64,000 bases of DNA from an uncultured Gammaproteobacteria bacterium (lineage in GTDB: Bacteria; Pseudomonadota; Gammaproteobacteria; Chromatiales; Chromatiaceae), in NCBI GenBank assembly GCA_937926265.1, contig CALAZS010000130.1, positions 2,796 through 66,795 on the forward strand, read 5' to 3'. Below, piece after piece: positions 1-14,255 of this stretch. The notes under the pieces were generated by a model, which did not search any database, was not told the DNA's origin, and was given only the letters and a program-made list of their open reading frames with translations. The translations under genes were made by a program, and so were the position numbers. Within the stretch, counting starts at the first letter, position 1. Every line of letters starts with the position of its first letter.

Positions 1-851
1 AACAGCGTCTGACCTTCCGAATTACCAAAAAATTCAAGTTGCGCTTTTACTGGCACACCGAATGTAAAACCACTGGTATCAAAGCCCGGCTCAAATTCAG
101 GCATTGGACGCGCATACTCATCACCAGCATCAAATGCTGCGGCAACATTAAAAACCTTGCTTGCATCGTCAATGCAGACCGTAAAAATTGACACACAGTC
201 GAGTGAACGACATGCCGGCACTACACCCGAATTACTCAGCAAACCACGTGAGGGTTTTAAACCTACCAGGTTATTGAAAGCAGCAGGTACTCTGCCAGAA
301 CCCGCGGTATCAGTACCCAGTGAAAAACTTACCTGGCCCAGGGCAACAGCAATGGCCGAACCTGAACTGGAACCACCTGAAATATAATCGGCATTGATAC
401 TGTTTTTACCCGGACCGTATGGTGATCTGGTGCCCACCAGCCCAGTCGCAAACTGATCCAGATTGGTCTTTCCAATCGGGATTGCTCCTGCCTGTATCAA
501 ACAAGCAACCACATAGGCATGACTGTCAGGCTGGTATGCATAGTCCGGGCAGGCCGCTGTGGTTGGCAGATCAGCAAGATCAATGTTGTCTTTTATAGCA
601 AATGGTATTCCATATAAGGGTTTTGACTGATCATCAAAATCACCTAAATCATCAAGATAGCAATCCAGTTGTTCAGGTGACAGGCGACTGATCCAGGCAT
701 TATGGTCAGGCTGTTCATCAATACGCTGCTGAACCAGTTCAATCACGTCTTTGGGTGTAAACTGTTCATCTCTATAGCCGTTGTGAAGCGTATTGATATC
801 CAGGCTGATATTTTTACTGATGTTATTATTCATTTTAGTATGCGTCGTCAT
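1..851 (-). CDS. Allophanate hydrolase (amidase-signature enzyme), N-terminal ~283 codons; 3' end lies beyond window start
   Basis: Absent from the ORF track because it runs off the edge. Reverse translation from ATG at 849-851 gives MTTHTKMNNNISKN...LYGIPFAIKDNIDL...GGSSSGSAIAVALG...GTDTAGSGRVPAAFNN (amidase Gly/Ser-rich signature). Starts 21 nt after the carboxylase stop. Confidence 0.85.
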   Translation of the reverse strand, partial: MTTHTKMNNNISKNISLDINTLHNGYRDEQFTPKDVIELVQQRIDEQPDHNAWISRLSPEQLDCYLDDLGDFDDQSKPLYGIPFAIKDNIDLADLPTTAACPDYAYQPDSHAYVVACLIQAGAIPIGKTNLDQFATGLVGTRSPYGPGKNSINADYISGGSSSGSAIAVALGQVSFSLGTDTAGSGRVPAAFNNLVGLKPSRGLLSNSGVVPACRSLDCVSIFTVCIDDASKVFNVAAAFDAGDEYARPMPEFEPGFDTSGFTFGVPVKAQLEFFGNSEGQTL

Positions 852-872
852 GGTCTTGTTCCTGCTCCACTC

Positions 873-3800
873 TTATGACTGTTCAAGTCTTAAAACAATC
901 AAAGCCTGACCAGCTGATATGGAAGCTCCCTGCTGACACAAAATTTCTTCCACGACCCCTATCTCATCTGACTCAATTGGAATTTCCATTTTCATTGCTT
1001 CCAGCACCAGCAGTTCCTGGCCAGGCTCAACCCTCTCACCGGGCTTAACCATTAGCTTCCAGACACTGCCTGTTACCGGTGATGCAATGGCAATGCAGCC
1101 AGCAGGAATTTCAAATGGCGCATCACTGCTGGCTACTTCATCCGGTATTTCCTGATCAAAAGAAGCCTGCCCGGTTTCTTCCCAACGTTGTCTTTCGGCT
1201 TCAAAGGCTGATTGTTGAGTTGACTTAAACGCTTCAATTGACGCTGCATTGTCAGCTAAAAATGCCAGGTACTCTTTTAACTTCAGCGTTGTATTTTCTA
1301 TCTTCAGGCTTGCACGGCCCAGAGGGAAATCGCGTCGCCATTGCTGCAGCTCCTCCCGGGAAACTTCGTAAAAATGTATCTGGTCAAAAAAGCGCAACAA
1401 CCATTGACGTCCATCAATAAAGTCTGCGGTTTGCCGGTAGCGATTCCACATCTGTATTGTACGACCAACAAACTGGTAACCTCCCGGCCCCTCCATTCCA
1501 TAGACACACATATAGGCACCACCGATGCCCACGGCGTTCTCAGGTGTCCAGGTTCGTGCAGGGTTATATTTTGTGGTCACCAGGCGATGACGCGGATCTA
1601 CCGGTGTAGCAACCGGCGCTCCAAGATATACATCACCAAGCCCCATAACAAGGTAACTTGCGTTAAAAACAATTTGCTTTACATCCTCAATTGATTCGAG
1701 ACCGTTGATTCTTCGAATAAACTCGATATTACTCGGGCACCAGGGCGCATCCGGCCGGACTGACTGCATATACTTTTCGATTGCCAGCCTGGTTGATGGG
1801 TCGTCCCATGACAATGGTAAATGGACAATACGGCTGGGCACCTCCATATCAGCAATAGCTGGTAATTCACTTTCAGCCTGCAGCAGCAAATCAAGTAATT
1901 GCATCTGACTGATTTGCTGATTATCAAAGTGCACCTGTAAAGAACGAATACCCGGAGTCAGGTCAATCAGGCCCTTAAGCTGCTTGGCATTAATCCATTG
2001 CATCAGGGCATGTACTCGGAATCTAAGATTTAAGTCCAGAACCTGTGGTCCATATTCTATTAAAAGATTTTCATCGCCTGACTGACGATAACAGACATCT
2101 ATTTGCTGTCCGCTTTTACCTGCTGTTTTTCTAAGTAATACAGGATCGGCTGTTTCGCCCGGCACCAGGCCGTTTATGTCAGGTAATTTATCTGTTTTGA
2201 ATTCATTAATTATTGCCTGCTGATGACATGCAAGACTGGCAGCCTCATCAACTGAAACACAATGAAAACGGATTTTATCTCCCGGCTTGAGCTGTCCCAT
2301 TTTCCAAAGATCAGCCTGAATTATCGTTGCCGGACAGACAAACCCTCCCAGGCTTGGGCCATCAGGTCCAAGAATGATTGGCATATCACCGGTAAAATCA
2401 ATGGCACCGATGGCATAGGCATTATCATGAATATTTGATGGATGCAGTCCTGCCTCCCCGCCATCCTCGCGAGCCCAGGCTGGTTTAGGTCCAATTAACC
2501 GAACACCGGTGCGGCTGGAATTATAGTGAACTTCATAATCTGTCGAGAACAGTGTTTTTATATCTTCCTCTGTAAAAAAATCAGGTGCGCCATGCGGGCC
2601 ATACATGACATTGATATCCCAGTGATCGGGATAACTTGGTATTAAGGTCTGAGGGAGTTTTTCATAATCTATGGCACCTTTATTCTGTTTATATAGCCTT
2701 AAAACATCGCCAACCCTTAATGCCCGGCCCGCGTGACCGCCAAACTTGCCCAGCGTAAATGTAGTTCGCGAACCCATATACTGTGGAACATCAAATCCAT
2801 CTTTAACCGCCAGGTAGGTTCGATTACCCTGACCTTCAATGGTCCGTAACTTTAAAATGCTGCCTGCTTTTACAGGTATAGCTTGCCAGTATTCAACTTC
2901 TTTGCCATCAAGTAATGCTTTCATCTTTGCGCCGGTAAGCGCAATGACAGTATCGGCATTAAATTGCAGGCTGGGGCCGGTTACTGTCATCTCAAGACCA
3001 GCAGCGTCATCATTGTTGCCGAGGATTCGATTGGCCAGACGAAATGCATATGTGTCCATCGGGCCGGATGGTGGCACACCAATATCCCAGTAACCAATAC
3101 GCCCGGGATAATCGACAATAAAGCTCTGAGTGCCCGGCGAAACAACGTCAATAGTTAACGGTGCGAAGTTAAATTTATCCAGGTACCTGGTAAAATGACG
3201 GGCTTTAACAAATACCTCATCCTGGATTATGCTGCCAAGGTACTCAAGGTTTGTTTCGATCCCGTATAAATGTGTGGCTTTTATGGCGTTGAAAAGCTTC
3301 CCCCGAACACTATCGCGATTATTGTCATGAGCAATCAGCTTGGCAATCATCGGATCATAAAAAGCAGGTACCTCACTCCCTTGTTCCACCCATGTATCTA
3401 CACGGACATTGTCTGGAAAACAAACATCGGAAAGCAAGCCTGGGCAAGGCTGAAATTTTTTGCCCGGATCCTCGGCATATATTCGGACCTGCATTGCGTG
3501 ACCATTTGGCTGGTGCTTATAATCAGCAAGAGAGGCATTATCATCGGCAGCAGTCCGAATCATCCACTCAACCAGGTCAACACCGGTAACCATCTCGGTA
3601 ACACCGTGCTCTACCTGTAACCGCGTATTAACCTCAAGAAAATAAAACTCATTGCTTAAAGAGTCATAAACATACTCCACCGTACCGGCTGAGCGATAGT
3701 TTACTGCCTTACCCAGATTAACGGCCGCCGTCATCAGGCGCTGACGTAATTCTTCTGATATGTCAGGTGCCGGGGTTTCTTCTATGACTTTCTGGTTTCG

Positions 3801-4496
3801 CCGCTGTACTGAACAGTCACGCTCCCCAAGCGCCACAACATGACCCTTACCATCACCGAATATCTGGACTTCAATGTGCCTTGCTTTTTCAACATACTTT
3901 TCCAGAAAGATACCGCCCTGGCTAAAATTACTTCGCGCAAGGCGTTCCACTGAATGAAACGCATCTGAAAGCTCTTGTTCTGACCAGCATAGTTGCATAC
4001 CTATACCACCGCCACCAGCAGTGCTTTTCAGCATTACAGGATAACCAATGGCCAAAGCTTCTCGCCTGGCATGATCTAAATCATCAAGCAACCCGGTACC
4101 GGGTAATAAAGGTACATTGTTATCTTTAGCTAATGACCTGGCAGTATGCTTCAGACCAAAGTCTCGCATTTGCCTGGGTGTGGGACCTATGAAAGCTATG
4201 TTGTGCTGTTCGCAGGTTTCCGCAAACTCTGCGTTCTCACTTAAGAACCCATAACCGGGATGAACAGCCTCTGCTCCAAAGTCCTTAGCTACCTGCAATA
4301 TTTTTTGAGTATCAAGATAACTTTCGGAAGCGGGACCTGGGCCAATACATACAGCCTCATCTGCTTCAGAAACATGCAGCGAGGCCTCGTCGGCCTCTGA
4401 ATAAACAGCCAGGGACTTAATCCCCATCGACTTCAAGGTTCGAATTATGCGGCAGGCAATTGTACCGCGGTTGGCAATTAATACTTTTTTAAACAT
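873..4496 (-). CDS. Urea/guanidine carboxylase (biotin carboxylase + KipI/KipA-type carboxyltransferase + biotinyl domain)
   Basis: 1207-aa ORF. N-terminal ATP-grasp biotin carboxylase ([27 protein letters not shown]), large central carboxyltransferase region, C-terminal biotinylation motif LEAMKME. The guanidine-II riboswitch candidate directly upstream favours guanidine as substrate. Confidence 0.9.
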
Positions 4497-4507
4497 AGGA
4501 TAATGCC

Positions 4508-4527
4508 GTAATACTTAGTCGTATTAC
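4508..4527 (-). promoter_or_regulatory. GTAATAC-N6-GTATTAC perfect inverted repeat between riboswitch and carboxylase start codon (RNA hairpin and/or operator)
   Basis: Read directly: 7-bp arms at 4508-4514 and 4521-4527. The same heptamer recurs at 11558-11564 and 11579-11585 in the operon leader. Confidence 0.4.
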
Positions 4528-4541
4528 CAGCTAGTATTAAT

Positions 4542-4588
4542 GGCAGGTCGTCCTACCGTTTTACCACATCGTCGGGTCGTCCCGGCGA
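4542..4588 (-). promoter_or_regulatory. Guanidine-II (mini-ykkC) riboswitch candidate
   Basis: Minus-strand RNA has two hairpins. P1 is UCG-C-CGGG[ACGA]CCCG-A-CGA (4588..4569) and P2 is GGUAGG[ACGA]CCUGCC (4557..4542). Both are GC-rich stems capped by ACGR tetraloops closed by GG/CC, with an 11-nt linker. The element lies 23 nt after the DUF1989 stop and 45 nt before the carboxylase ATG. Confidence 0.75.
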
Positions 4589-4610
4589 AGATCAAATTAT
4601 GTGATTTTTG

Positions 4611-5249
4611 TCAGTCCCAGATCAGTACTTCAACAGGTGTAGGGTTATAGGCATTACAGGGATTGTTCAATTGCGGGCAATTGGATATTAAAACGATAAC
4701 ATTCATTGCAGCCTTTAACTCAACATATTTACCGGGTGACGAAATACCATCTTCAAATGTCAAACCACCATCCGGTGTGACTGGCACATTCATAAAAAAA
4801 TTAATATTGTGGGTAATATCTCTTTTGCTCATTCCATACTGTTCATTTTCGGCTATAGCCAGCATCCAGCTATCCCGACAGGCATGCATACACTTTTTAT
4901 CCAATGCATAGCGAACCGTATTACTTTCCGTGGCACATGCCCCACCTATGGTATCGTGTCTCCCACAAGTATCCGCGACAATCTCCAACATAAGATTCAT
5001 TTCATTAGAGAGCAGTTTAGTGCCAGTAGTCAGGTAAACATTACCCTGTTCCCTTATGGTATCGATGGCACTGTAGCGCTCACCCGGATCGTCGGCGTTA
5101 TAAAACAAAGTATCAGCAGCCTGGTTACCTTCAAGATCCAGAATCCTCACCGTCTGACCTGCCTTGACAACCTGCATATAGTAATCGCCGGCAAGCACCA
5201 TCTTTCTATCGCAGGCATCTTCAGGTTTAAGGGTACTCTCTTTAATCAT
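4611..5249 (-). CDS. DUF1989 / urea-carboxylase-associated protein (carboxyguanidine deiminase CgdAB-like subunit)
   Basis: 212-aa ORF, paralogous to the upstream 248-aa ORF with an 8-nt overlap. It occupies the conserved position next to the carboxylase. Confidence 0.75.
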
Positions 5250-5988
5250 GGCAACATCCCTGCCCTAAATGGAAAATTTCATTGTTTTTAAAGCCCCGTT
5301 GATTTTCTGGTCTGAAATTCATACAGAAGTCATCGGGTTGAATTTCAGCTGCCTGGCGTATTTCATATTTAACAGGTTTTTGCGGATATTCAGTGGCCGG
5401 GTTTAAAGGATGCGGACAGGTGTGGAATAACACCAGCGTGTCCATTTCAAAACGCAGCTCTATGTAGTCCCCGGCTTTACTGTTGTTTTCGATATATTTC
5501 AAATTACCCTGTTCATCAACCGTGACGCCGCTGAAAAGATTAAGATTTGAAGCCATGTCTTTACGTCCTAGTCCATGCTTGGCCAATTCAACCAGGAAAC
5601 TGTTGTAACCATTCTGGTTCCAGTCGTTATGATAATCCTGGTAGGTTTTTTCACCCCATTTTTCTTTTACTGTTTTGCTGGTGGTATTACCACAAACGGT
5701 TTCATGCCAACCGACAGTATCTTCAACAATCGAGCAAAATACCCTGCCCATATCTGAATAAAGACAATTCCCCTTGGTTAGCTTGAAGGTATGCTGGCAT
5801 TTCAGGGTATCTGGTGCGTTGTACTTTTCCAGTAAGTTGGTCGGGTTATAGAACAACATACCAACGTTGGCTCCACCTGTTTCATCAATCAGTCTTAAGC
5901 AGGTTCCCTTGCGCATAAGCAAAGACCAGTGGCAACCACCAGCCAGCTGATCTTCATATAAAACTGTTCCGGGCTCTATTGTTTTCAT
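5242..5988 (-). CDS. DUF1989 / urea-carboxylase-associated protein (carboxyguanidine deiminase CgdAB-like subunit)
   Basis: 248-aa ORF, the larger paralog of the pair that typically precedes urea/guanidine carboxylase genes. Confidence 0.75.
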
Positions 5989-6000
5989 ATTTACCCCTTT

Positions 6001-6480
6001 CTATAGCCTTTCTTTATCTTGGATTTCAGGCAGAGGATGTAACGGCGGAATGATAGCTGCTGACATTAGCAACTTACCACTGATAACACCCCTGCAGGTT
6101 TTCATTTTATTAGCGATTAATTTTAATTTTTCTCCCGGCCCCTGAACCAGAATCACCGCCATGGTCTTTTTTTGTTCCAGGTTAACATTCAATACACTAA
6201 TGACTTCATCTATAAATTCATGCATTAAATCTGACAACTTTCTCTGTAACCCTGGTACAGAATAGTCATATATCAGGTTAATTGTACCGGCCATAATTTC
6301 TTCACCTACATCCTGCCTATGTTCAACCAGTTGCTGATGAATCATGTCCGCCATTGCCCGGGAGCGGCTTTCATAACCCTTTTCATCAACCATCTGATCA
6401 AACTCAAGCGCCAGATTCTCGGGTAACGACACACTGATACGACTGACTCTGCGCTGGCTTTTCGGGTTGACCTGCTTCAT
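6001..6480 (-). CDS. NikR-fold (ribbon-helix-helix + ACT-like) transcriptional regulator lacking the canonical Ni ligands
   Basis: 159-aa ORF. The N-terminal RHH (RISVSLPENLALEFDQMVDEKGYESRSRAMADMI) matches the NikR/CopG pattern. The C-terminal domain aligns by eye to the NikR metal-binding domain, but HxH...C is replaced by NVN...T. Confidence 0.65.
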   Translation of the reverse strand: MKQVNPKSQRRVSRISVSLPENLALEFDQMVDEKGYESRSRAMADMIHQQLVEHRQDVGEEIMAGTINLIYDYSVPGLQRKLSDLMHEFIDEVISVLNVNLEQKKTMAVILVQGPGEKLKLIANKMKTCRGVISGKLLMSAAIIPPLHPLPEIQDKERL

Positions 6481-6496
6481 ACCTGCTTCATATATG

Positions 6497-7858
6497 TTAA
6501 AACAAGTGACTGTAACGATCTATTTCCCAGCTTGATATCGTCTGGTGATACTCATTCCATTCCTGGCGTTTATAGCGAATAAACTCATCCCTGAGTGGTT
6601 TGCCAAGCACTTCTGTAACAAGGGGGTCGGCTTCGAACGCATCCACTGCCTCCAGCAGGTTTTTGGGTAAAAACTCTATGCCCCGCTCGGCCCTTTGTTC
6701 CTCGGTTAGTTCGTAAAGGTTATCTTCCTGTGGATTACCCGGATCAATCGATTCTTTAATACCTTCAAGTCCCGCTGCCAATGCCAGCGTTGCAGCAAGA
6801 TAAGGATTAACAGCGCCATCAGCATTACGTGACTCACAACGCCCACCACCCATCGGTACGCGAATCGAATTTGTTCGGTTATTAGAGCCGAAAGAATTGA
6901 ACACCGGTGCCCAGGTAAAATAAGGCATGTCACCCTGGCGTACCAAGCGCTTGTAACTGTTGACGGTAGGAGCAAAGGCCGCACAGAGTGCCTTGCCATG
7001 CTTGATAATGCCGCCAATGAAGTTATAACCCAGCGGGGTTAATCCTAGTCCTTTTGGGTCTTCAGCAGGATCACAGGCAAAAAGGTTTTTACCACTGTTT
7101 ATGTCATATAACGACATATTGAAATGCGCCCCATTACCCGTCTTATCTGCAAAAGGCTTTGGCATAAATGTCGCGATCAGCCCCTCCTGCTTGGCATATT
7201 CTTTCGCCATGAGACGTAAAAATATATAACGGTCACAACTGGTAACTGCATCGGCATACATGAAATCAAATTCGTATTGCCCATTGGCATCTTCATGGTC
7301 GAACGAGTAAAGGTCCCAGCCCAGGGCATTTATTGTCGAGGCCATTTTATCTAGCCAACCAAACTGATCTAGAAAGCCGCGAGCATCGTAACAGGGCTTG
7401 GTTAACTTATCGTCCGGATTTGGAATACTTAATGAGCCATCTTCATTTTGCTTCAATACAAAAACTTCTGCTTCGATACCCAGGTTAAAACCAAAGCCCA
7501 TATCGGCTGCCTGTGATAAAACATTCTTCAAGGCAACACGGGTATTTAATGCATAAGGCTCGCCTTTAAAGGTATTGTCTGCCGGCATCCAGGCCACTTC
7601 AGGCTGCCATGGCAGCTGGATGATATGGTCAAGGTCGGGTAACGATGCAATCTCATCATCGTTAGGTGCCTGGCCAAGACCATCCAGTGCATAGCCGGTA
7701 TACAATTCAGAACCATGCGCCATATGTTCAAGATGTTCAATTGGTACAACTTTACCCTTTGGTACTCCATGAATATCAACATAGGCACCCAGACAATATT
7801 TGACGCCCAATGAAGTAAGCTTATCCTGAATCTCCTTTATTTCCTGCGAACTTTTCAT
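6497..7858 (-). CDS. Glutamine synthetase-like ATP-dependent ligase (GS family, PuuA/GmaS-like size)
   Basis: 453-aa ORF with GS catalytic-domain blocks ([48 protein letters not shown]). ATGA overlap with the upstream creatininase-like gene. Confidence 0.8.
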
Positions 7859-8637
7859 AATTCACTTTCCATGCTGATTGCTTCGGAATAACCAAAGGGT
7901 AATGGCGGGATTTCCTGCATACCTTTTTTGACAGTTTCACTTAAATCTTCAACCATCCATTCAAACAACTGTTGACCTTTATCAGCACTTGCAAGACTTG
8001 GTTTACCTGTTACACCATTTTTGCTGGTTCGGTTTACAGGATGGGAAAATACACAATTTTCAGTTCGGTCTTCATCATCACAATCCTGTATACGATCGGA
8101 ACGGACCATCTTAGGACTCAAGGCCATCATCAACGAGGTTTCAGCGTCATTGGCATGCCAGTCATCAGCATCATGAAAGTGGGCTTGTTTTACACGTTCA
8201 CTGATTGAGGCTGAATTGATCAGGGCGATCATGAAATCATCGTATTCGGCACGCAACATCTCTAAAGCACAACGCAGTGGCGCGAAGTTGGTGACATGCG
8301 TATTAATAATAAACAGACGCTTAAAACCAGATGCATAGACCCAATCGCCAATCTGTTTAACGATATCGATCAGAGTCTTTGGTTGTAAAGCAATCGTTCC
8401 TGGCCAGCGTTTCGAATGACCTATTGAGCAGCCAAAAGATTGAGTTGGCAATAAAGCCGCACCGGTTTTTTCAGCAACAGCTTCACACAAGTGCGATGCA
8501 ATATCGGCATCCATACCGCAACCCATATGTGGACCATGTTGTTCAGTTGCACCCACTGGAAGGATGGCTGTGTCCATACCGTTTGAAATCAATTCACCAA
8601 CCTCTTCCCAGGTCATGGTGTGCCATTTGTTCAGCAT
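7855..8637 (-). CDS. Creatininase-family amidohydrolase
   Basis: 260-aa ORF with family motifs [26 protein letters not shown] and HANDAETS. Its start codon abuts the TAG stop of the ABC ATPase gene. Confidence 0.8.
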
Positions 8638-9561
8638 CTAGAAAACGCTCTCTACCTCATTATCAACGCCCACCATTCGTACCATATTGAGATGATCACT
8701 GTTGACACCCTCCTCTTCTTCAGAAGGTGGATGAATCAATTCTTCAAGGCGTTTTTTGGTGGCTAGAAACTCAGCGGACAGAAGCTGCTCTGGAGATCTT
8801 GGCTGCGGCACGGGCACTTCAATAATCTCATTGACTTCTCCTGGATGGGCTTTTAATACCAGGATACGATCCGCCAGATAAATGGCTTCATCCAAATCAT
8901 GCGTAATAAAGAAAATCGTGATATCAATGTTTTGCCAGATTTCCATGAGATACTGCTGCATCTTGGCACGGGTTTGCGCATCCAGTGCGCCGTAAGGCTC
9001 ATCCATCAATAAGATACGCGGCTGATTGGCCAAAGCCCTGGCTATAGCGACACGTTGTTTCATACCACCCGACAACTCATGTGGGTAGCTATCTTCAAAT
9101 TTACCCAAGCCAACCAGGTCGATCCATTGACGCGCATCTTCCTCTGCCAGCACTTTACTGTGGCCTGATTGTTCTAAACCAAACATGACGTTTCGCTTAA
9201 CGGTCAGCCACGGAAACAAAGTATAACCCTGAAACACCATGCCACGATCAGGGCCAGGACCCTGTACCGGTTTGCCATCAAGTATAATTTCACCGGAAGT
9301 CGGCGTTTCCAAGCCAGCTAGAATCCGAATCAGTGTAGACTTACCACATCCGGAAGGGCCGATCACACAAACGAATTCTCGCTTGTGTACGGTAAAGTTT
9401 ATGTCTTTTAAAGCAGTGACCTTAGCCCCGGTTGGGGTTTCAAACTGCTTGTAAAGATTTTTAATCTCCAATGCTATTGGGCGTTGTTTTATCCGGGCAA
9501 AGCGATCTTTAACGTCTTCGTCTTGATCAAGGTAGCTGGGCAAATCGACTAAATGTTCCAT
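8638..9561 (-). CDS. ABC transporter ATP-binding protein (NitT/TauT family)
   Basis: 307-aa ORF with Walker [10 protein letters not shown], signature LSGGMKQR and Walker B LLMDEP. Confidence 0.9.
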
Positions 9562-9573
9562 AACAATATGTCC

Positions 9574-10539
9574 TTAAGCTTTTGCTTTTCTTTGCCATGG
9601 GAACAAGCGTTTACCCATCTGCGCAAGTATGAGATCGGTCGCCAATCCAATAATGCCAATAATCATGATCGCGGCAAAAACATTATCAAAGTTTTTATAG
9701 CGTGCCTGCTGAGTGATAAACCAGGTAATTCCTGAGCTGGTACCAATCAATTCGGCGACGATCAGATAGGTCCAGGCCCAGCCAAGCAAAATTCGCATAT
9801 CACGATAAAGATCGGGCAATACGCCTGGCACAACTACTCTGAATAACAAGGCTTTATTTTTTGCACCCAGTGTTTGAGCGGCTTCAAGTAATGATGGATC
9901 AAGCTTGCGCGTGGTATTGGAGATGACCAATACCTGTTGGAAAAAAGTACCAATGAAAATAATGGCGATTTTGGGGGCATGATGAATACCCAAAATTGCT
10001 ACTGCCAGCGCACCAAAAGCCGGTGCTGGCAGGTAACGAAAGAATTCAATAAACGGTTCAAACAACCGTGAGAAAAAATCATAGGTGCCAGCCAGAATCC
10101 CTAACGGCACACCAATTAATGAGGAAAGGAAAAATCCCCAGAAAATAACCTGAATACTGTCCCAAAGGCTTTCATGCAGCCATTTTTCAGTTCGTCTCTT
10201 TGGTGGTGTAGTAAAGGCGGTATAAAAAGCTTCAGCCACCTCATGTGGCGCAGGCAGATAGATAGGGTTTGCTGGATCGCCCTGGGGAAGCGTCTTACTG
10301 GCTTCTTTCGCCTTTAAAGACTCTTCATCAAACAGCTCACGATCTACAAGCATTCCTTCTTTGAAATAGGAAACTGCACCGGGTTCGGTTATTTCTACTT
10401 TAGGGTGCCACAACCAGGGCACATAACTGACCAGGCACCAGAGCAGAAGAGGTAATGCAAAGCTCATTACAGTAATCATGACACGAGACCTTGGCCTCAG
10501 TTCTTTTCGAACTGCAAACAGTTGTTTGAATGAACTCAT
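9574..10539 (-). CDS. ABC transporter permease (NitT/TauT family)
   Basis: 321-aa polytopic ORF with an EAA-type loop (LEAAQTLGAKNKALLFRVVVPGVLP). Confidence 0.85.
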   Translation of the reverse strand: MSSFKQLFAVRKELRPRSRVMITVMSFALPLLLWCLVSYVPWLWHPKVEITEPGAVSYFKEGMLVDRELFDEESLKAKEASKTLPQGDPANPIYLPAPHEVAEAFYTAFTTPPKRRTEKWLHESLWDSIQVIFWGFFLSSLIGVPLGILAGTYDFFSRLFEPFIEFFRYLPAPAFGALAVAILGIHHAPKIAIIFIGTFFQQVLVISNTTRKLDPSLLEAAQTLGAKNKALLFRVVVPGVLPDLYRDMRILLGWAWTYLIVAELIGTSSGITWFITQQARYKNFDNVFAAIMIIGIIGLATDLILAQMGKRLFPWQRKAKA

Positions 10540-10567
10540 GTACTTCTCCCGCTCCGGACTACCCGAA

Positions 10568-11545
10568 TTAAAGTTCGGCCATCAATGACATATCGATGTA
10601 AGCATCAACGTCTTCAGGAGATTCATATACTTTGTTGGCTACATTGAAGTCATCTGAGATTTTTGAAGAACCGTAGATTGAGGTGAAACCCTCTGCCTTA
10701 GGTGCAAACTTCATGGCCTCTTCAAGAGTCATGATATTGGTTCCGCTAATCAGTTTTTTGTATTCAGCAGGCTCCAAACCGACGCGAGCCGCCATAATTT
10801 CAACTGCATCAGCGTTAGTGGCCGGGTCTTTAAGGTAAGCAACAGACTTGTACCAGACTTTTAAAACTTTCTTCCAGTCATCACGTCTAGCCGCGAGGCT
10901 TTCAGGAGAAACAGCTAAAACGTCGTAGATCAAACCCGGTTCATCTTTACTGGTGTAGATCGCTTTTGAACCAGGAACGAGTGATAACGCCTGACCAGAG
11001 CTTGGCTGCCATGCAACAACCGCATCCACTTCACCAGAAGCCAAAACCTGAGGTGTTTCATTAGTCGGTACATTGACCAGTTCAACATCAGCCTCTGTAA
11101 GACCAGCACCTTCCAAGGCATTCAACAGCAGCAAATGACCTACAAAGCCAATTTCAACACCAATTTTCTTTCCTTTCAGGTCTTTAACTGAATCGATACC
11201 CGGCAGGGCAACGACCATGTCATTGCCATTACTGTAATCGTTAATCAGGATCATGACGCTTTTCGCACCGGTTGCACCGGTAACCAGGGCGTCACCATTG
11301 GTCATGCTGACCGCATCAAGTTTGCCTGCCGCATAAGCATCCATGGAAGCCACATAGTCAAACCACTCAAAAACAACATCTACACCTTCTTCTTTGAACC
11401 ATTGTTTTTCAATGGCAACTTCCCATGCAACCCACCCGGGCCAATCACTGTAGCCAATCTTCAATGGTTCGGCGGCTTTCGCAGTGGTACTAATGGCTAT
11501 TGCCACTAACAAGGTAGATATAATGCGCTTCATAAAACTTTTCAT
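10568..11545 (-). CDS. ABC transporter periplasmic substrate-binding protein (NMT1/TauA-like)
   Basis: Signal peptide [25 protein letters not shown] prefer the ATG at 11545, 5 nt after a GAGGAG Shine-Dalgarno, over the GTG at 11551 used in the ORF track. Confidence 0.8.
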
Positions 11546-11592
11546 GGACACTCCTCAGTATTACGATTTGATAAAAAAGTATTACCAGGAAT

Positions 11593-11608
11593 CGCAATTA
11601 CCAGGCCA
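11593..11608 (-). promoter_or_regulatory. Sigma54 (-24/-12) promoter candidate for the transporter-to-allophanate-hydrolase operon
   Basis: Minus strand reads TGGCCTGGTAATTGCG, which is TGGC-N7-TTGC with exact consensus spacing, about 50 nt upstream of the SBP start codon. Confidence 0.6.
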
Positions 11609-11762
11609 ACTTAAGTAAGCCACTGTTTTTATTCAATTTAACTTACTTTTGTTGTAGATAAGTTTTTGTAAACGCACCAAAAAGCTTCAATTCATTATCT
11701 TTATCGCGCTAAAAAAGTGCATTAAGTCACTCTTAAATTGAATACTCAGTTAAAATCACGTC

Positions 11763-13685
11763 ATGCTTCAATTCAATAATCTCAGTATCCGTCGCGGTAC
11801 CAGTCTGTTGTTTTCAGATGCGACGTTTAACATTTATCCGGGACACAAAATTGGTATAACCGGCGCCAATGGTTGTGGTAAATCCAGCCTGTTTGCAGTC
11901 ATCAGGAAAGAACTTGCAGCCGATGACGGCAGCTTTTCCATGCCTGCCAACTGGACAATTGCTCATGTAAAGCAGCAGACGCCACAGGATGAAAGATCTG
12001 CTATCGACTATGTGCTTGACGGCGATAGTGAATACCGTGAGCTTGAAGCACAGATAAAAAAAGCCGAACTAAACCATGATGGCAACCGCCTCGCGCACCT
12101 GCACGAGCAGTTTGACCATATTGGTGGATACCGTGCCCCTAGTCGGGCAGCACGTTTACTGCATGGTCTGGGCTTCAGCAATGAACAGGAAAACCTTGCG
12201 GTAAACAGTTTTTCCGGTGGCTGGCGCATGCGCCTTAACCTGGCCCAGGCCTTGATGTGTCGTTCGGATTTATTACTACTTGATGAGCCAACCAATCATT
12301 TGGATCTTGATGCCGTTATCTGGCTGGAACAATGGCTGGCTGAATACCAGGGCACACTGTTACTGATTTCACATGACCGCGATTTTCTCGATAAAGTCTG
12401 TGAACAGATTGGCCATATCGAACAAAACCAGATAAACCTCTATGCCGGCAACTATTCCGCTTTTGAAAAAATACGGGCCGCCAAGCTTGCCAATCAACAG
12501 GCCGAACATGAAAAACAGCAACGTGAAATAGCTCACATCCAACACTACATCGATCGCTTTCGCGCCAAGGCCACCAAGGCCAGGCAGGCACAAAGCCGAA
12601 TCAAGGCGTTACAGAAAATGGAATTAATTGCACCCGCCCATGTTGACTCGCCATTTCATTTTTCTTTTCTGAACGCGGATAAACAACCCAACCCGCTAAT
12701 CAAACTGGATGGCGTTAGCCTTGGCTATGAACTAAACAAACCAATTTTGGATAAGCTGACCATGGTATTAAGCCCGGGTGACCGTCTTGGGTTGCTGGGT
12801 GCCAACGGTGCCGGAAAAAGCACACTGATCAAATCCCTGGCAGAACAATTACAACCACTTAATGGCGATATCCACAAAGCCCAGGACTTAAAGATCGGTT
12901 ACTTTGCACAGCACCAGGTAGAACAGCTACACCCTGAACATACGCCATTGGAACATCTGCAACAATTGGACAGGCATGCAACTGAGCAGCAGTTAAGAAA
13001 CTTTCTCGGTGGCTTTGGTTTTTCCAATGATAAGGCACTGGAAAAAACCGCCCCCTTTTCCGGTGGAGAAAAGGCCCGTCTTGCGCTTGCCCTTATTGTT
13101 TATCAGCGGCCTAACCTGCTGTTACTGGATGAACCGACCAACCATCTCGATATCGAAATGCGCCAGGCTCTTGCTCAGTCATTACAGGATTTTGAAGGTG
13201 CCATGGTCATTGTTTCGCATGATCGTCACCTGTTAAGGGTCAGCTGTGACCAACTGTTAATTGTTGCCAATCATGAAATTGATGAATTTAAAGAAAGCCT
13301 GGATGACTACCCGAAATGGCTGGCCCGACAACAAGCCATGCAGAACCAGTTTGAATCAGACATAAAATCCTCCAGTGACAATTCGGCTGCTGCGAAAAAG
13401 GAACGAAAACGCAAACAAGCTGAGCAACGAAAAAAATTGCAGCCCCTGCAAAAAAAGTTAAAAAGCATAGAAGAAAACATTAAACAGCTCGGTTCTGAGC
13501 AGAAGCAGTTGGAAAAGCAGTTAACTGACAATTCACTGTATGAAAACGAAAACAAGGATCTTCTTCAGGAAATTCTTTTACAAAAACAAAAGATTGATAC
13601 TGAACTGGAAGATAGCGAATATCTTTGGCTGGAAGTTTCTGAAAAAATCGAAATGATTACTGAATCATTTGCTGAAGATGCATAA
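11763..13685 (+). CDS. ABC-F family ATPase (YheS/Uup-like translation factor type)
   Basis: 640 aa with two ABC cassettes (GANGCGKSS/LSGGWRMR and GANGAGKST/FSGGEKAR), no TM domain and a Lys/Glu-rich coiled-coil tail. Confidence 0.85.
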   Translation: MLQFNNLSIRRGTSLLFSDATFNIYPGHKIGITGANGCGKSSLFAVIRKELAADDGSFSMPANWTIAHVKQQTPQDERSAIDYVLDGDSEYRELEAQIKKAELNHDGNRLAHLHEQFDHIGGYRAPSRAARLLHGLGFSNEQENLAVNSFSGGWRMRLNLAQALMCRSDLLLLDEPTNHLDLDAVIWLEQWLAEYQGTLLLISHDRDFLDKVCEQIGHIEQNQINLYAGNYSAFEKIRAAKLANQQAEHEKQQREIAHIQHYIDRFRAKATKARQAQSRIKALQKMELIAPAHVDSPFHFSFLNADKQPNPLIKLDGVSLGYELNKPILDKLTMVLSPGDRLGLLGANGAGKSTLIKSLAEQLQPLNGDIHKAQDLKIGYFAQHQVEQLHPEHTPLEHLQQLDRHATEQQLRNFLGGFGFSNDKALEKTAPFSGGEKARLALALIVYQRPNLLLLDEPTNHLDIEMRQALAQSLQDFEGAMVIVSHDRHLLRVSCDQLLIVANHEIDEFKESLDDYPKWLARQQAMQNQFESDIKSSSDNSAAAKKERKRKQAEQRKKLQPLQKKLKSIEENIKQLGSEQKQLEKQLTDNSLYENENKDLLQEILLQKQKIDTELEDSEYLWLEVSEKIEMITESFAEDA

Positions 13686-13730
13686 CTGTTTTTTATAATT
13701 ATTTGCTTTGATTGAAGCCCTGGTGCTTAT

Positions 13731-14255
13731 TCATTTTTTTTGGTTTGTTTTGTACATTTCACGCAACAATGCAATATTGCGTTCCGGAATAACTTGCGGG
13801 TCAGGATAACTTTGCAGTGCCTTTTCAAGACTTTCCTCCCTGATCAGGTGAAACATGGGAAACGGTGAGCGGTTGGTAAGATTGGCCGGATCATCTTCGG
13901 CTTCACCTTCAAAACAGTAATCCGGATGAAAACTTGCCAACTGGATACTGCCCTCAAGACCTGTCTCTGCTATTACCTTTTCAAGCAGGCCCAGGAAATC
14001 AAGATATTCGTCGAACGTAACCAGGCCATTTTCAATAACAGCCAGGGTTGTTTCAATTTCTTTTGGGTCAGCCTGGTAAAGCTGATCAAGTTCATTTAAA
14101 ACAAAACGGAAAATCTCATCATCATCGGTCGCTTCAGTTGCAACGATACGCACCTGCTTATTTTCATAAGGGTACTTTGCAAACGGGCACAGGTTTAACC
14201 TTATAACCCAGTTCTCAAGCCAGTTATTCGTTTCTTCAATTGCGTTTAAAGTCAT
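13731..14255 (-). CDS. DUF1415 family protein
   Basis: 174-aa ORF whose N-terminal NWLENWVIRLNLCPFAKYP matches my recollection of DUF1415 proteins. Confidence 0.55.
   Translation of the reverse strand: MTLNAIEETNNWLENWVIRLNLCPFAKYPYENKQVRIVATEATDDDEIFRFVLNELDQLYQADPKEIETTLAVIENGLVTFDEYLDFLGLLEKVIAETGLEGSIQLASFHPDYCFEGEAEDDPANLTNRSPFPMFHLIREESLEKALQSYPDPQVIPERNIALLREMYKTNQKK

Follow-up and report, generated by a model that had tools for sequence, protein, structure and literature searches.

A NikR-Family Protein Lacking the Canonical Nickel Site Is Associated With Guanidine Import Genes and a Predicted Operator in an Uncultured Member of the Chromatiaceae

Results

The Locus and Its Regulator Gene

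The stretch of DNA analyzed here (the window) comprises 64,000 nucleotides from an uncultured gammaproteobacterium of the family Chromatiaceae (contig CALAZS010000130.1, positions 2,796 to 66,795; source genome 3.15 Mb, 99.4% complete), and our subject is the gene for a 159-residue NikR-like regulator that lies within it between genes for an ATP-binding cassette (ABC) importer and genes for guanidine degradation (Table 1). The protein is a member of the NikR family with the NikR fold but without the square-planar His3Cys nickel site. The operon fits the guanidine carboxylase type, as it contains a CgdAB pair (DUF1989 proteins), a biotin carboxylase and an allophanate hydrolase, with a guanidine-II riboswitch candidate that scores just under the gathering threshold. 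The regulator gene is located 16 nt 3′ of the gene for a glutamine synthetase (GS)-like ligase and 12 nt 5′ of the first DUF1989 gene.

Table 1. Features of the window that are discussed in the text.
Feature	Position	Strand	Remarks
NikR-like regulator gene	6001..6480	-	159 residues; ribbon-helix-helix (RHH) domain ~12-58; ferredoxin/ACT-like tetramerization domain 62-142; clade-specific tail 143-151 (IIPPLHPLP)
Predicted operator GTAATAC-N14-GTAATAC	11558..11585	-	28 bp; starts 8 nt after the -12 GC, ends 1 nt before the Shine-Dalgarno (SD) sequence of the substrate-binding protein (SBP) gene
Sigma-54-type promoter TGGCCT-N5-TTGCG (-24/-12)	11593..11608	-	TGGTGCG-type NtrC-like half-sites further upstream
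NitT/TauT-type ABC importer genes	8638..11545	-	SBP 10568-11545; permease 9574-10539; ATPase 8638-9561
Creatininase-family gene	7855-8637	-	optional member of the importer/regulator module
GS-like type III ligase gene	6497-7858	-	optional member of the importer/regulator module
UAAP1/CgdA-like gene (DUF1989)	5242-5988	-	guanidine-degradation module (3..5988)
UAAP2/CgdB-like gene (DUF1989)	4611-5249	-	guanidine-degradation module
Guanidine-II (mini-ykkC) riboswitch candidate	4544..4588	-	RF01068, 29.7 bits (gathering 32), local E 1.6e-4; before the carboxylase gene
Second perfect heptamer dyad GTAATAC-N6-GTATTAC	4508..4527	-	11 nt upstream of the carboxylase start, 3′ of the guanidine-II candidate
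Urea/guanidine carboxylase gene	873-4496	-	guanidine-degradation module
Allophanate hydrolase gene	3-851	-	guanidine-degradation module; extends past the window edge

An earlier note on this DNA, made from the letters of the sequence, had described an RHH N-terminus joined to a NikR-like C-terminal domain; profile searches and a structure prediction bore the description out. The protein matched the Pfam families RHH_1 (residues 14-51, 21.1 bits against a cut-off of 20.5) and NikR_C (PF08753; residues 64-139, 75.3 bits, E 4.4e-21). It narrowly passed the NCBIfam model NF003381 "NikR" (110.6 against a cut-off of 105) and failed three other NikR models (NF002169, 99.1 against 111; NF002815, 70.5 against 83; TIGR02793, 62.6 against 175). 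An AlphaFold2 model built on 100 relatives (mean predicted local distance difference test score, pLDDT, 83.8) has two RHH helices followed by a beta-alpha-beta-beta-alpha-beta domain, and its top Foldseek matches were all NikR structures (best 2bj3, E 3e-12), with ACT-type domains such as IlvN next. The C-terminal domain superposed on NikR metal-binding domains with a root-mean-square deviation of 0.8-1.4 Å and a target TM-score of 0.85-0.95. The closest solved relative, sharing the same fold, is the NikR of Pyrococcus horikoshii (2bj1, 2bj3, 2bj7), with 40% identity and an ungapped alignment over 129 residues (phmmer E 4.4e-31). The P. horikoshii protein represses a nickel importer, and differs from the regulator in having His89, His91 and Cys97 where the latter has Asn, Asn and Thr.

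At the start of the regulator gene an 11-nt string, ATGAAGCAGGT, is present as a tandem duplicate (window 6470-6491, minus strand). The upstream copy starts a four-codon frame (MKQV, stop) whose TGA overlaps the true ATG of the regulator (GTATGA); this duplicated frame may be a small upstream open reading frame that serves in coupling, or a recent duplication.

Loss of the Nickel Ligands

The high-affinity square-planar nickel site of NikR consists, in Escherichia coli numbering, of His87, His89, Cys95 and His76′ (PMC7055735). To locate the corresponding residues we used the ungapped phmmer alignment to P. horikoshii NikR (2bj1), an alignment to Helicobacter pylori NikR and a BLASTP alignment to E. 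coli NikR (NC_000913). All three agree that H87 of the regulator is equivalent to His76, N98 to His87, N100 to His89, and T106 to Cys95. The replacement of His87, His89 and Cys95 by Asn, Asn and Thr, which the earlier note had read from an alignment made by eye, is therefore correct. The note had also stated that the His-rich segment is reduced to a single His (LMHEF); this holds, with the refinement that the remaining residue is the exact equivalent of His76, so that the regulator keeps one of the four ligands. In the BLASTP alignment the K+ site residue Glu30 of E. coli NikR is likewise replaced, by Arg41. We considered that a canonical NikR had merely been misaligned and rejected this, because three independent alignments give the same replacements.

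The substitutions are typical of the close subfamily. A word-index search yielded 1,491 relatives, and among the best 120 of these (60-95% identity), which were used for the conservation counts, N98 is found in 96 of 121 sequences, N100 in 106 and T106 in 115. We are highly confident that the regulator does not sense nickel at the canonical site.

A Clade of Relatives Without the Site

When 1.84 billion cluster representatives were searched exhaustively and without a profile, alignment of the relatives found delineated a group within the NikR relatives that is marked by LVQG where canonical NikR has V(R/K)G. In a FastTree phylogeny the smallest clade with all 48 LVQG representatives held none of the 59 representatives with a full His3Cys site, albeit with modest node support (0.63). 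With one genome scanned per species, relatives of the regulator turned up in the genomes of at least 346 species. The equivalent of Cys95 is absent from every clade member in the alignment of cluster representatives. Basal members keep three histidines at the former nickel positions (HHHY, HHHT), and other members have, among others, R/H/Q/R, H/H/F/I or R/R/L/L at the four positions; those of His87, His89 and Cys95 thus range over N/N/T, H/Q/R, H/F/I and R/L/L. The operator and gene context described below are unchanged across subclades that differ in these residues.

Other residues are conserved clade-wide and set the group apart from canonical NikR, namely S16 of the RHH strand; E92, Q113 and L119; and, within a C-terminal extension, P145, P146 and usually H148. 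As the former nickel positions vary and E92, Q113 and the PPxH tail are conserved, the old nickel pocket is probably not the sensor. The earlier note had proposed that the scaffold was repurposed for a signal other than nickel, with guanidine, urea or a pathway intermediate as its guess for the ligand. This fits the association with the guanidine pathway rather than with nickel genes; repurposing of the same pocket is weakened by the variation at its former ligands.

A Predicted Operator Downstream of a Sigma-54-Type Promoter

The earlier note had singled out two regions, 11552-11620 and 4497-4540, as worth footprinting, and each proved to contain a dyad of heptamers (Table 1). The first lies in front of the SBP gene, whose SD sequence is at 11551-11556 and whose ATG is at 11545 (minus strand). 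We surveyed the 260 nt 5′ of the SBP gene in 61 importer leaders. The heptamer GTAATAC/GTATTAC was present in 60 of them, compared with 2 expected from shuffled sequences; it was always paired, with a spacer of exactly 14 nt (GTAWTAC-N14-GTAWTAC), and a typical 20-kb locus has no copies besides this pair. All 60 sites agree at half-site positions 2, 3 and 5-7, the central base is A or T, and the flanks lengthen the palindrome to GTATTACGA...TCGTAATAC. Of the 61 leaders, 57 have a sigma-54 element with at least 9 of 11 matches to TGGCAC-N5-TTGC at a constant spacing from the operator, and in 56 of these 57 the dyad starts 5-8 nt past the C of the -12 TTGC, so that it should span about -5 to +24. 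More distant subclades also carry the dyad beside the regulator gene, one perfectly (L118) and two with one mismatch each (L117, L119).

The source genome has one perfect dyad with N14 spacing, that at 11558-11585; when every spacing from 4 to 19 is counted it has four, among them the second dyad of the window. Because its three one-mismatch N14 sites are no commoner than such sites at other spacings, the scan gave no further targets in this genome; none of its nickel or urease genes has a perfect N14 operator. The mere presence of the pattern in a genome was discarded as evidence, as a reversed control pattern matched a comparable number of genomes.

The second dyad (4508-4527) has a spacing of N6 that does not suit the N14 operator. 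As RNA it would form a 10-bp hairpin with extra flanking pairs, and no other locus has a second operator before the carboxylase gene, the N6 dyad being confined to the window. A role in RNA is possible for this dyad and unlikely for the main operator.

Gene Neighborhood

To compare gene order, we fetched 80 loci of Gamma- and Alphaproteobacteria and Verrucomicrobiaceae from the at least 346 genomes and annotated them by tblastn with the ten proteins of the window. The regulator gene was preceded by the ABC ATPase gene in 24 loci and by the GS-like gene in 55, that is, in all 79 loci with upstream sequence. It is always 3′ of the importer genes, with creatininase-like and GS-like genes sometimes intervening, and subclades at 43-52% identity occupy the same gene set despite quite different residues at the former nickel positions. 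Some distant subclades have the regulator and SBP genes in divergent orientation.

On the downstream side, 59 loci have the first DUF1989 (CgdA-like) gene as the neighbor. Seven loci (L043, L051, L061, L064, L071-L073) have divergent DUF1989-carboxylase genes and an importer operon that ends with the regulator gene, and in several further loci tblastn found no carboxylase gene within 10 kb. The constant partner of the regulator is thus the importer, and its mid-operon position in the window is that of two modules placed head to tail. The earlier note had correctly placed the gene between the GS-like and CgdAB-like genes but considered this atypical for an operon regulator; the 79 loci do not agree with the latter view, since the regulator consistently follows the importer much as nikR follows nikE.

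Several loci have additional genes. The locus of the sister subclade P0126 (L117:1-7000) has, between the creatininase-like/GS-like genes and the NikR-like gene/carboxylase module, genes for FGE-sulfatase-like, AP-endonuclease-2-fold, Rieske oxygenase, short-chain dehydrogenase and polysaccharide-deacetylase proteins and a GerE regulator, a set that suggests a route from a more complex guanidino compound. Two others (L011:7921-10000 and L021:8013-10000) have ~2 kb of extra genes between the GS-like and NikR-like genes. As read in contig L004, these are a fatty-acid-desaturase-family gene and an unannotated 320-residue gene, with a mini-ykkC-like element in front.

Elsewhere the source genome encodes a urease alpha subunit (contig C46:55405-55755). 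The regulator is its only NikR_C protein, there being no canonical NikR, and no NiCoT-family nickel transporter was found in this 99.4%-complete genome, so that the nickel supply of the urease must be handled otherwise.

Guanidine Riboswitches at the Window and Related Loci

The guanidine-II candidate before the carboxylase gene carries both ACGA hairpins (GGGACGACCC and AGGACGACCU). A pattern search detected such elements in ~40 related loci, mostly in the gap between CgdB and carboxylase genes and in some cases between the regulator and CgdA genes, and Rfam guanidine-II matches exceeded the gathering threshold at the equivalent position of three related loci (L013, L019, L027). By both Rfam and pattern searches, riboswitches were found only before degradation genes and never before the importer. 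No match to guanidine-I (RF00442) was obtained in window positions 1-14000 at E values up to 1, and Rfam detected no riboswitch before the SBP gene in seven related loci. Operator and ATG are 12 nt apart in the window, and 2-36 nt apart in 51 of the 60 leaders whose dyad is recognizable, which is too short for a riboswitch.

A locus of Parvibaculum indicum has a guanidine-I aptamer (L080:10569-10691, 84.7 bits) in a 560-nt gap between the NikR-like and DUF1989 genes, followed at about 10774 by a mini-ykkC-like hairpin pair. Two classes of guanidine riboswitch may stand in tandem there.

A Predicted Tetramer and Its Interfaces

When the regulator was predicted in four copies, the interface score (ipSAE) was 0.77, whereas the best of the three controls reached 0.00; the runs had at least 80% of their contacts in common and the pLDDT of the partners was at least 73. 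This mark was attained in calibration by 20 of the 30 proteins with a solved pair structure and by 1 of the 23 with a solved single-chain structure. NikR tetramers have already been solved, so the four-copy score may reflect memory and does not in itself show binding. The confidently predicted interface includes residues 87, 98 and 100 of the former nickel site. Another patch (residues 90-92, 113-115, and 144-149) would join E92, Q113 and the tail from neighboring subunits. The conservation of these residues at one predicted interface suggests a retained functional site.

Discussion

The regulator shares several features with E. coli NikR beyond its RHH and NikR_C architecture. The E. coli gene is situated 5 nt after nikE, directly behind the importer genes, and in both cases the target, predicted here, is the importer promoter; a mid-operon place is thus not unusual for a regulator whose constant partner is the importer. 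The nik operator, read from NC_000913 as GTATGAC-gaatacttaaaatc-GTCATAC (7-N14-7; GTATGA-N16-TCATAC), is the same 28-bp dyad as that of the clade, with one base differing per half-site, and R14, S16 and S18 of the regulator, conserved in the clade, align with E. coli NikR strand residues 3, 5 and 7. Apart from the changes at His87, His89, Cys95 and Glu30, the two proteins differ in their low identity (23%) and in the additional C-terminal PPxH tail of the regulator, and the systems differ in the importer (nickel/peptide-type in E. coli, NitT/TauT-type in the guanidine operon) and in the promoter, which here is of the sigma-54 type. The predicted NikR box of delta-proteobacteria, GTGTTAC-N13/14-GTAACAC, has the same heptamer-spacer-heptamer layout and differs from GTATTAC-N14-GTAATAC at one position per half-site; however, it serves NikRs with a canonical nickel site and precedes nikMNQO nickel transporter genes (PMC545781).

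A second comparison is with Raoultella, Erwinia and Klebsiella, in which the importer and cgdAB genes lie behind a guanidine-I riboswitch and the carboxylase gene behind a guanidine-II riboswitch (PMC12186494). The latter arrangement recurs in the window. The guanidine-I element heads the importer module, the same place that in the window has a sigma-54 promoter and a predicted NikR-type operator, but it is an RNA and a proven guanidine-ON switch.

Taking these observations together, the reading we favor, with moderate confidence, is that the regulator is a tetrameric NikR-family repressor of the guanidine-import module in which the canonical nickel site has been lost. That it is a dedicated repressor acting through the GTAWTAC-N14-GTAWTAC operator we consider very likely. 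In such a mechanism, a homotetramer would read the two half-sites, which are 21 bp from center to center, with its two RHH dimers. With its start 5-8 bp past the -12 element, the operator would cover the melting region and the transcription start, and the bound tetramer would block initiation at the promoter of the importer operon. The regulator would be encoded in the very transcript that it represses, which implies negative autoregulation. Nitrogen limitation would turn the promoter on, with the repressor modulating it, and there may accordingly be two tiers of control, NtrC/sigma-54 and the repressor for the import module, and guanidine riboswitches for the carboxylase module.

As to the signal, the pathway context, the apparent replacement of guanidine-I, the ACT-like fold and the conserved interface patch make a guanidine-type small molecule, either guanidine or a closely related imported compound, our leading guess for the effector, although we place its likelihood slightly short of even. 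Such an effector may bind at the clade-specific subunit interface (E92, Q113, PPxH tail) and not in the old nickel pocket. Of its possible actions, release of the repressor from DNA seems the foremost candidate; release by the substrate would suit the fused operon, in which the carboxylase gene shares the transcript and the riboswitch is an ON switch. Co-repression is somewhat less probable; it would keep the allosteric polarity of NikR and guard against overload with a toxic solute, and fits best where the modules are separate. A protein that takes no ligand is less probable again, and other signals seem improbable. The fullest version of the proposal, that this is the first protein transcription factor to sense guanidine or a guanidino compound, a NikR with a decayed metal site and an effector site at the interface that gates a sigma-54 promoter in place of guanidine-I, is a tentative one on the doubtful side.

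Several points weigh against the reading of a guanidine-linked repressor. The former nickel positions are not conserved, so a ligand shared by the clade would have to bind elsewhere, and the site proposed instead (E92, Q113, tail) is drawn from sequence conservation and the four-copy prediction. Sensing of guanidine at the promoter would in part duplicate the function of the guanidine-II riboswitch, which lies in that same transcript. At two loci in which the regulator gene is divergent (L118:4020-4093 and L119:6900-6973) the dyad precedes the -24 element of the SBP sigma-54 promoter by ~25-30 nt and immediately precedes the regulator gene, unlike in the 60 co-linear loci, where it follows the -12 element; the protein may act on the importer promoter in another way at these two loci. 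The perfect operator pattern occurs in 39 of 401 genomes of the class (~1 in 10), and a reversed control pattern in roughly 30; as the bare pattern also occurs by chance, the argument is one of position and co-occurrence. Finally, our literature searches (NikR with guanidine or urea carboxylase, guanidine-responsive factors, and paralogs lacking the nickel residues) retrieved neither a description of the clade nor an experiment on any of its members.

Among the alternatives, the best surviving is that the protein is a ligand-independent autorepressor, which we regard as unlikely. Side-chain contacts (Asn/Asn/Thr/His here, Arg/Glu networks in sister subclades) would stand in for the nickel site, and a permanently DNA-binding tetramer would damp the sigma-54 operon and set its level by negative feedback. 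This would account for the differences among subclades at the former nickel positions against an unchanged operator and context, and several subclades have Arg at the His76 and Cys95 positions with Glu at position 73, resembling a salt-bridge substitute for the metal. The co-transcription of the regulator gene with its target is also consistent with it, as is the presence of a riboswitch that already senses guanidine. Against it, E92, Q113 and the PPxH tail are conserved throughout the clade and come together at one predicted interface, which suggests a retained functional site. ACT-like domains commonly bind small molecules, and the IlvN match in Foldseek points the same way. In related bacteria, moreover, the importer module is induced by guanidine (PMC12186494).

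A metal sensor with a new site, for example H73/H87/C129/H148, is in our view improbable. As a nickel-sparing switch, it could repress the carboxylase route, which costs ATP but needs no nickel, whenever urease or guanidinase can be supplied with the metal, and there is a proposed precedent in NikR repressing nickel-independent isozymes (PMC545781). The possession of a urease by a genome that lacks a canonical NikR fits such a role, and H87, C129 and H148 are kept in most members of the close subfamily; across the wider clade, however, these three are not conserved despite the same operator and context, and position 73 is Tyr in the regulator itself. The Cys ligand is gone from the entire clade and two of the three His from the regulator, and the sole operator of the genome is at the importer rather than at nickel or urease genes.

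That the dyad is not the regulator's site at all but a leader RNA element or the site of another factor, the NikR-like protein having a different role, is highly improbable, since, although the dyad would be partly transcribed and the second dyad of the window folds as an RNA hairpin, the first half-site (about -5 to +2 of the expected start) would not be fully in the RNA, dyad variants lack compensatory changes, the geometry and sequence match known NikR operators, and the dyad accompanies the regulator gene into divergent arrangements and distant subclades.

Public records name relatives of the regulator "nickel-responsive regulator NikR", a label that comes from automatic annotation, as the regulator itself passes the NF003381 cut-off. 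For this clade the label is probably wrong in function, and the repressor reading, if borne out, would correct a systematic misannotation. According to a 2024 review, nickel is the only signal that NikR proteins sense (PMC11672702), and a 2025 review states that riboswitches are the sole known guanidine receptors besides transporters and enzymes, with guanidine-binding transcription factors yet to be found (PMC12186494). If true, a widespread NikR clade that lacks the nickel site and is wired to guanidine import would bear on both statements. The clade offers a compact pair of protein and operator with a precisely defined 28-bp predicted site, and the regulator is a candidate for a switch of guanidine use that is a protein and not an RNA. 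It would represent a metalloregulator scaffold that has moved to nitrogen metabolism with its DNA-reading head almost unchanged.

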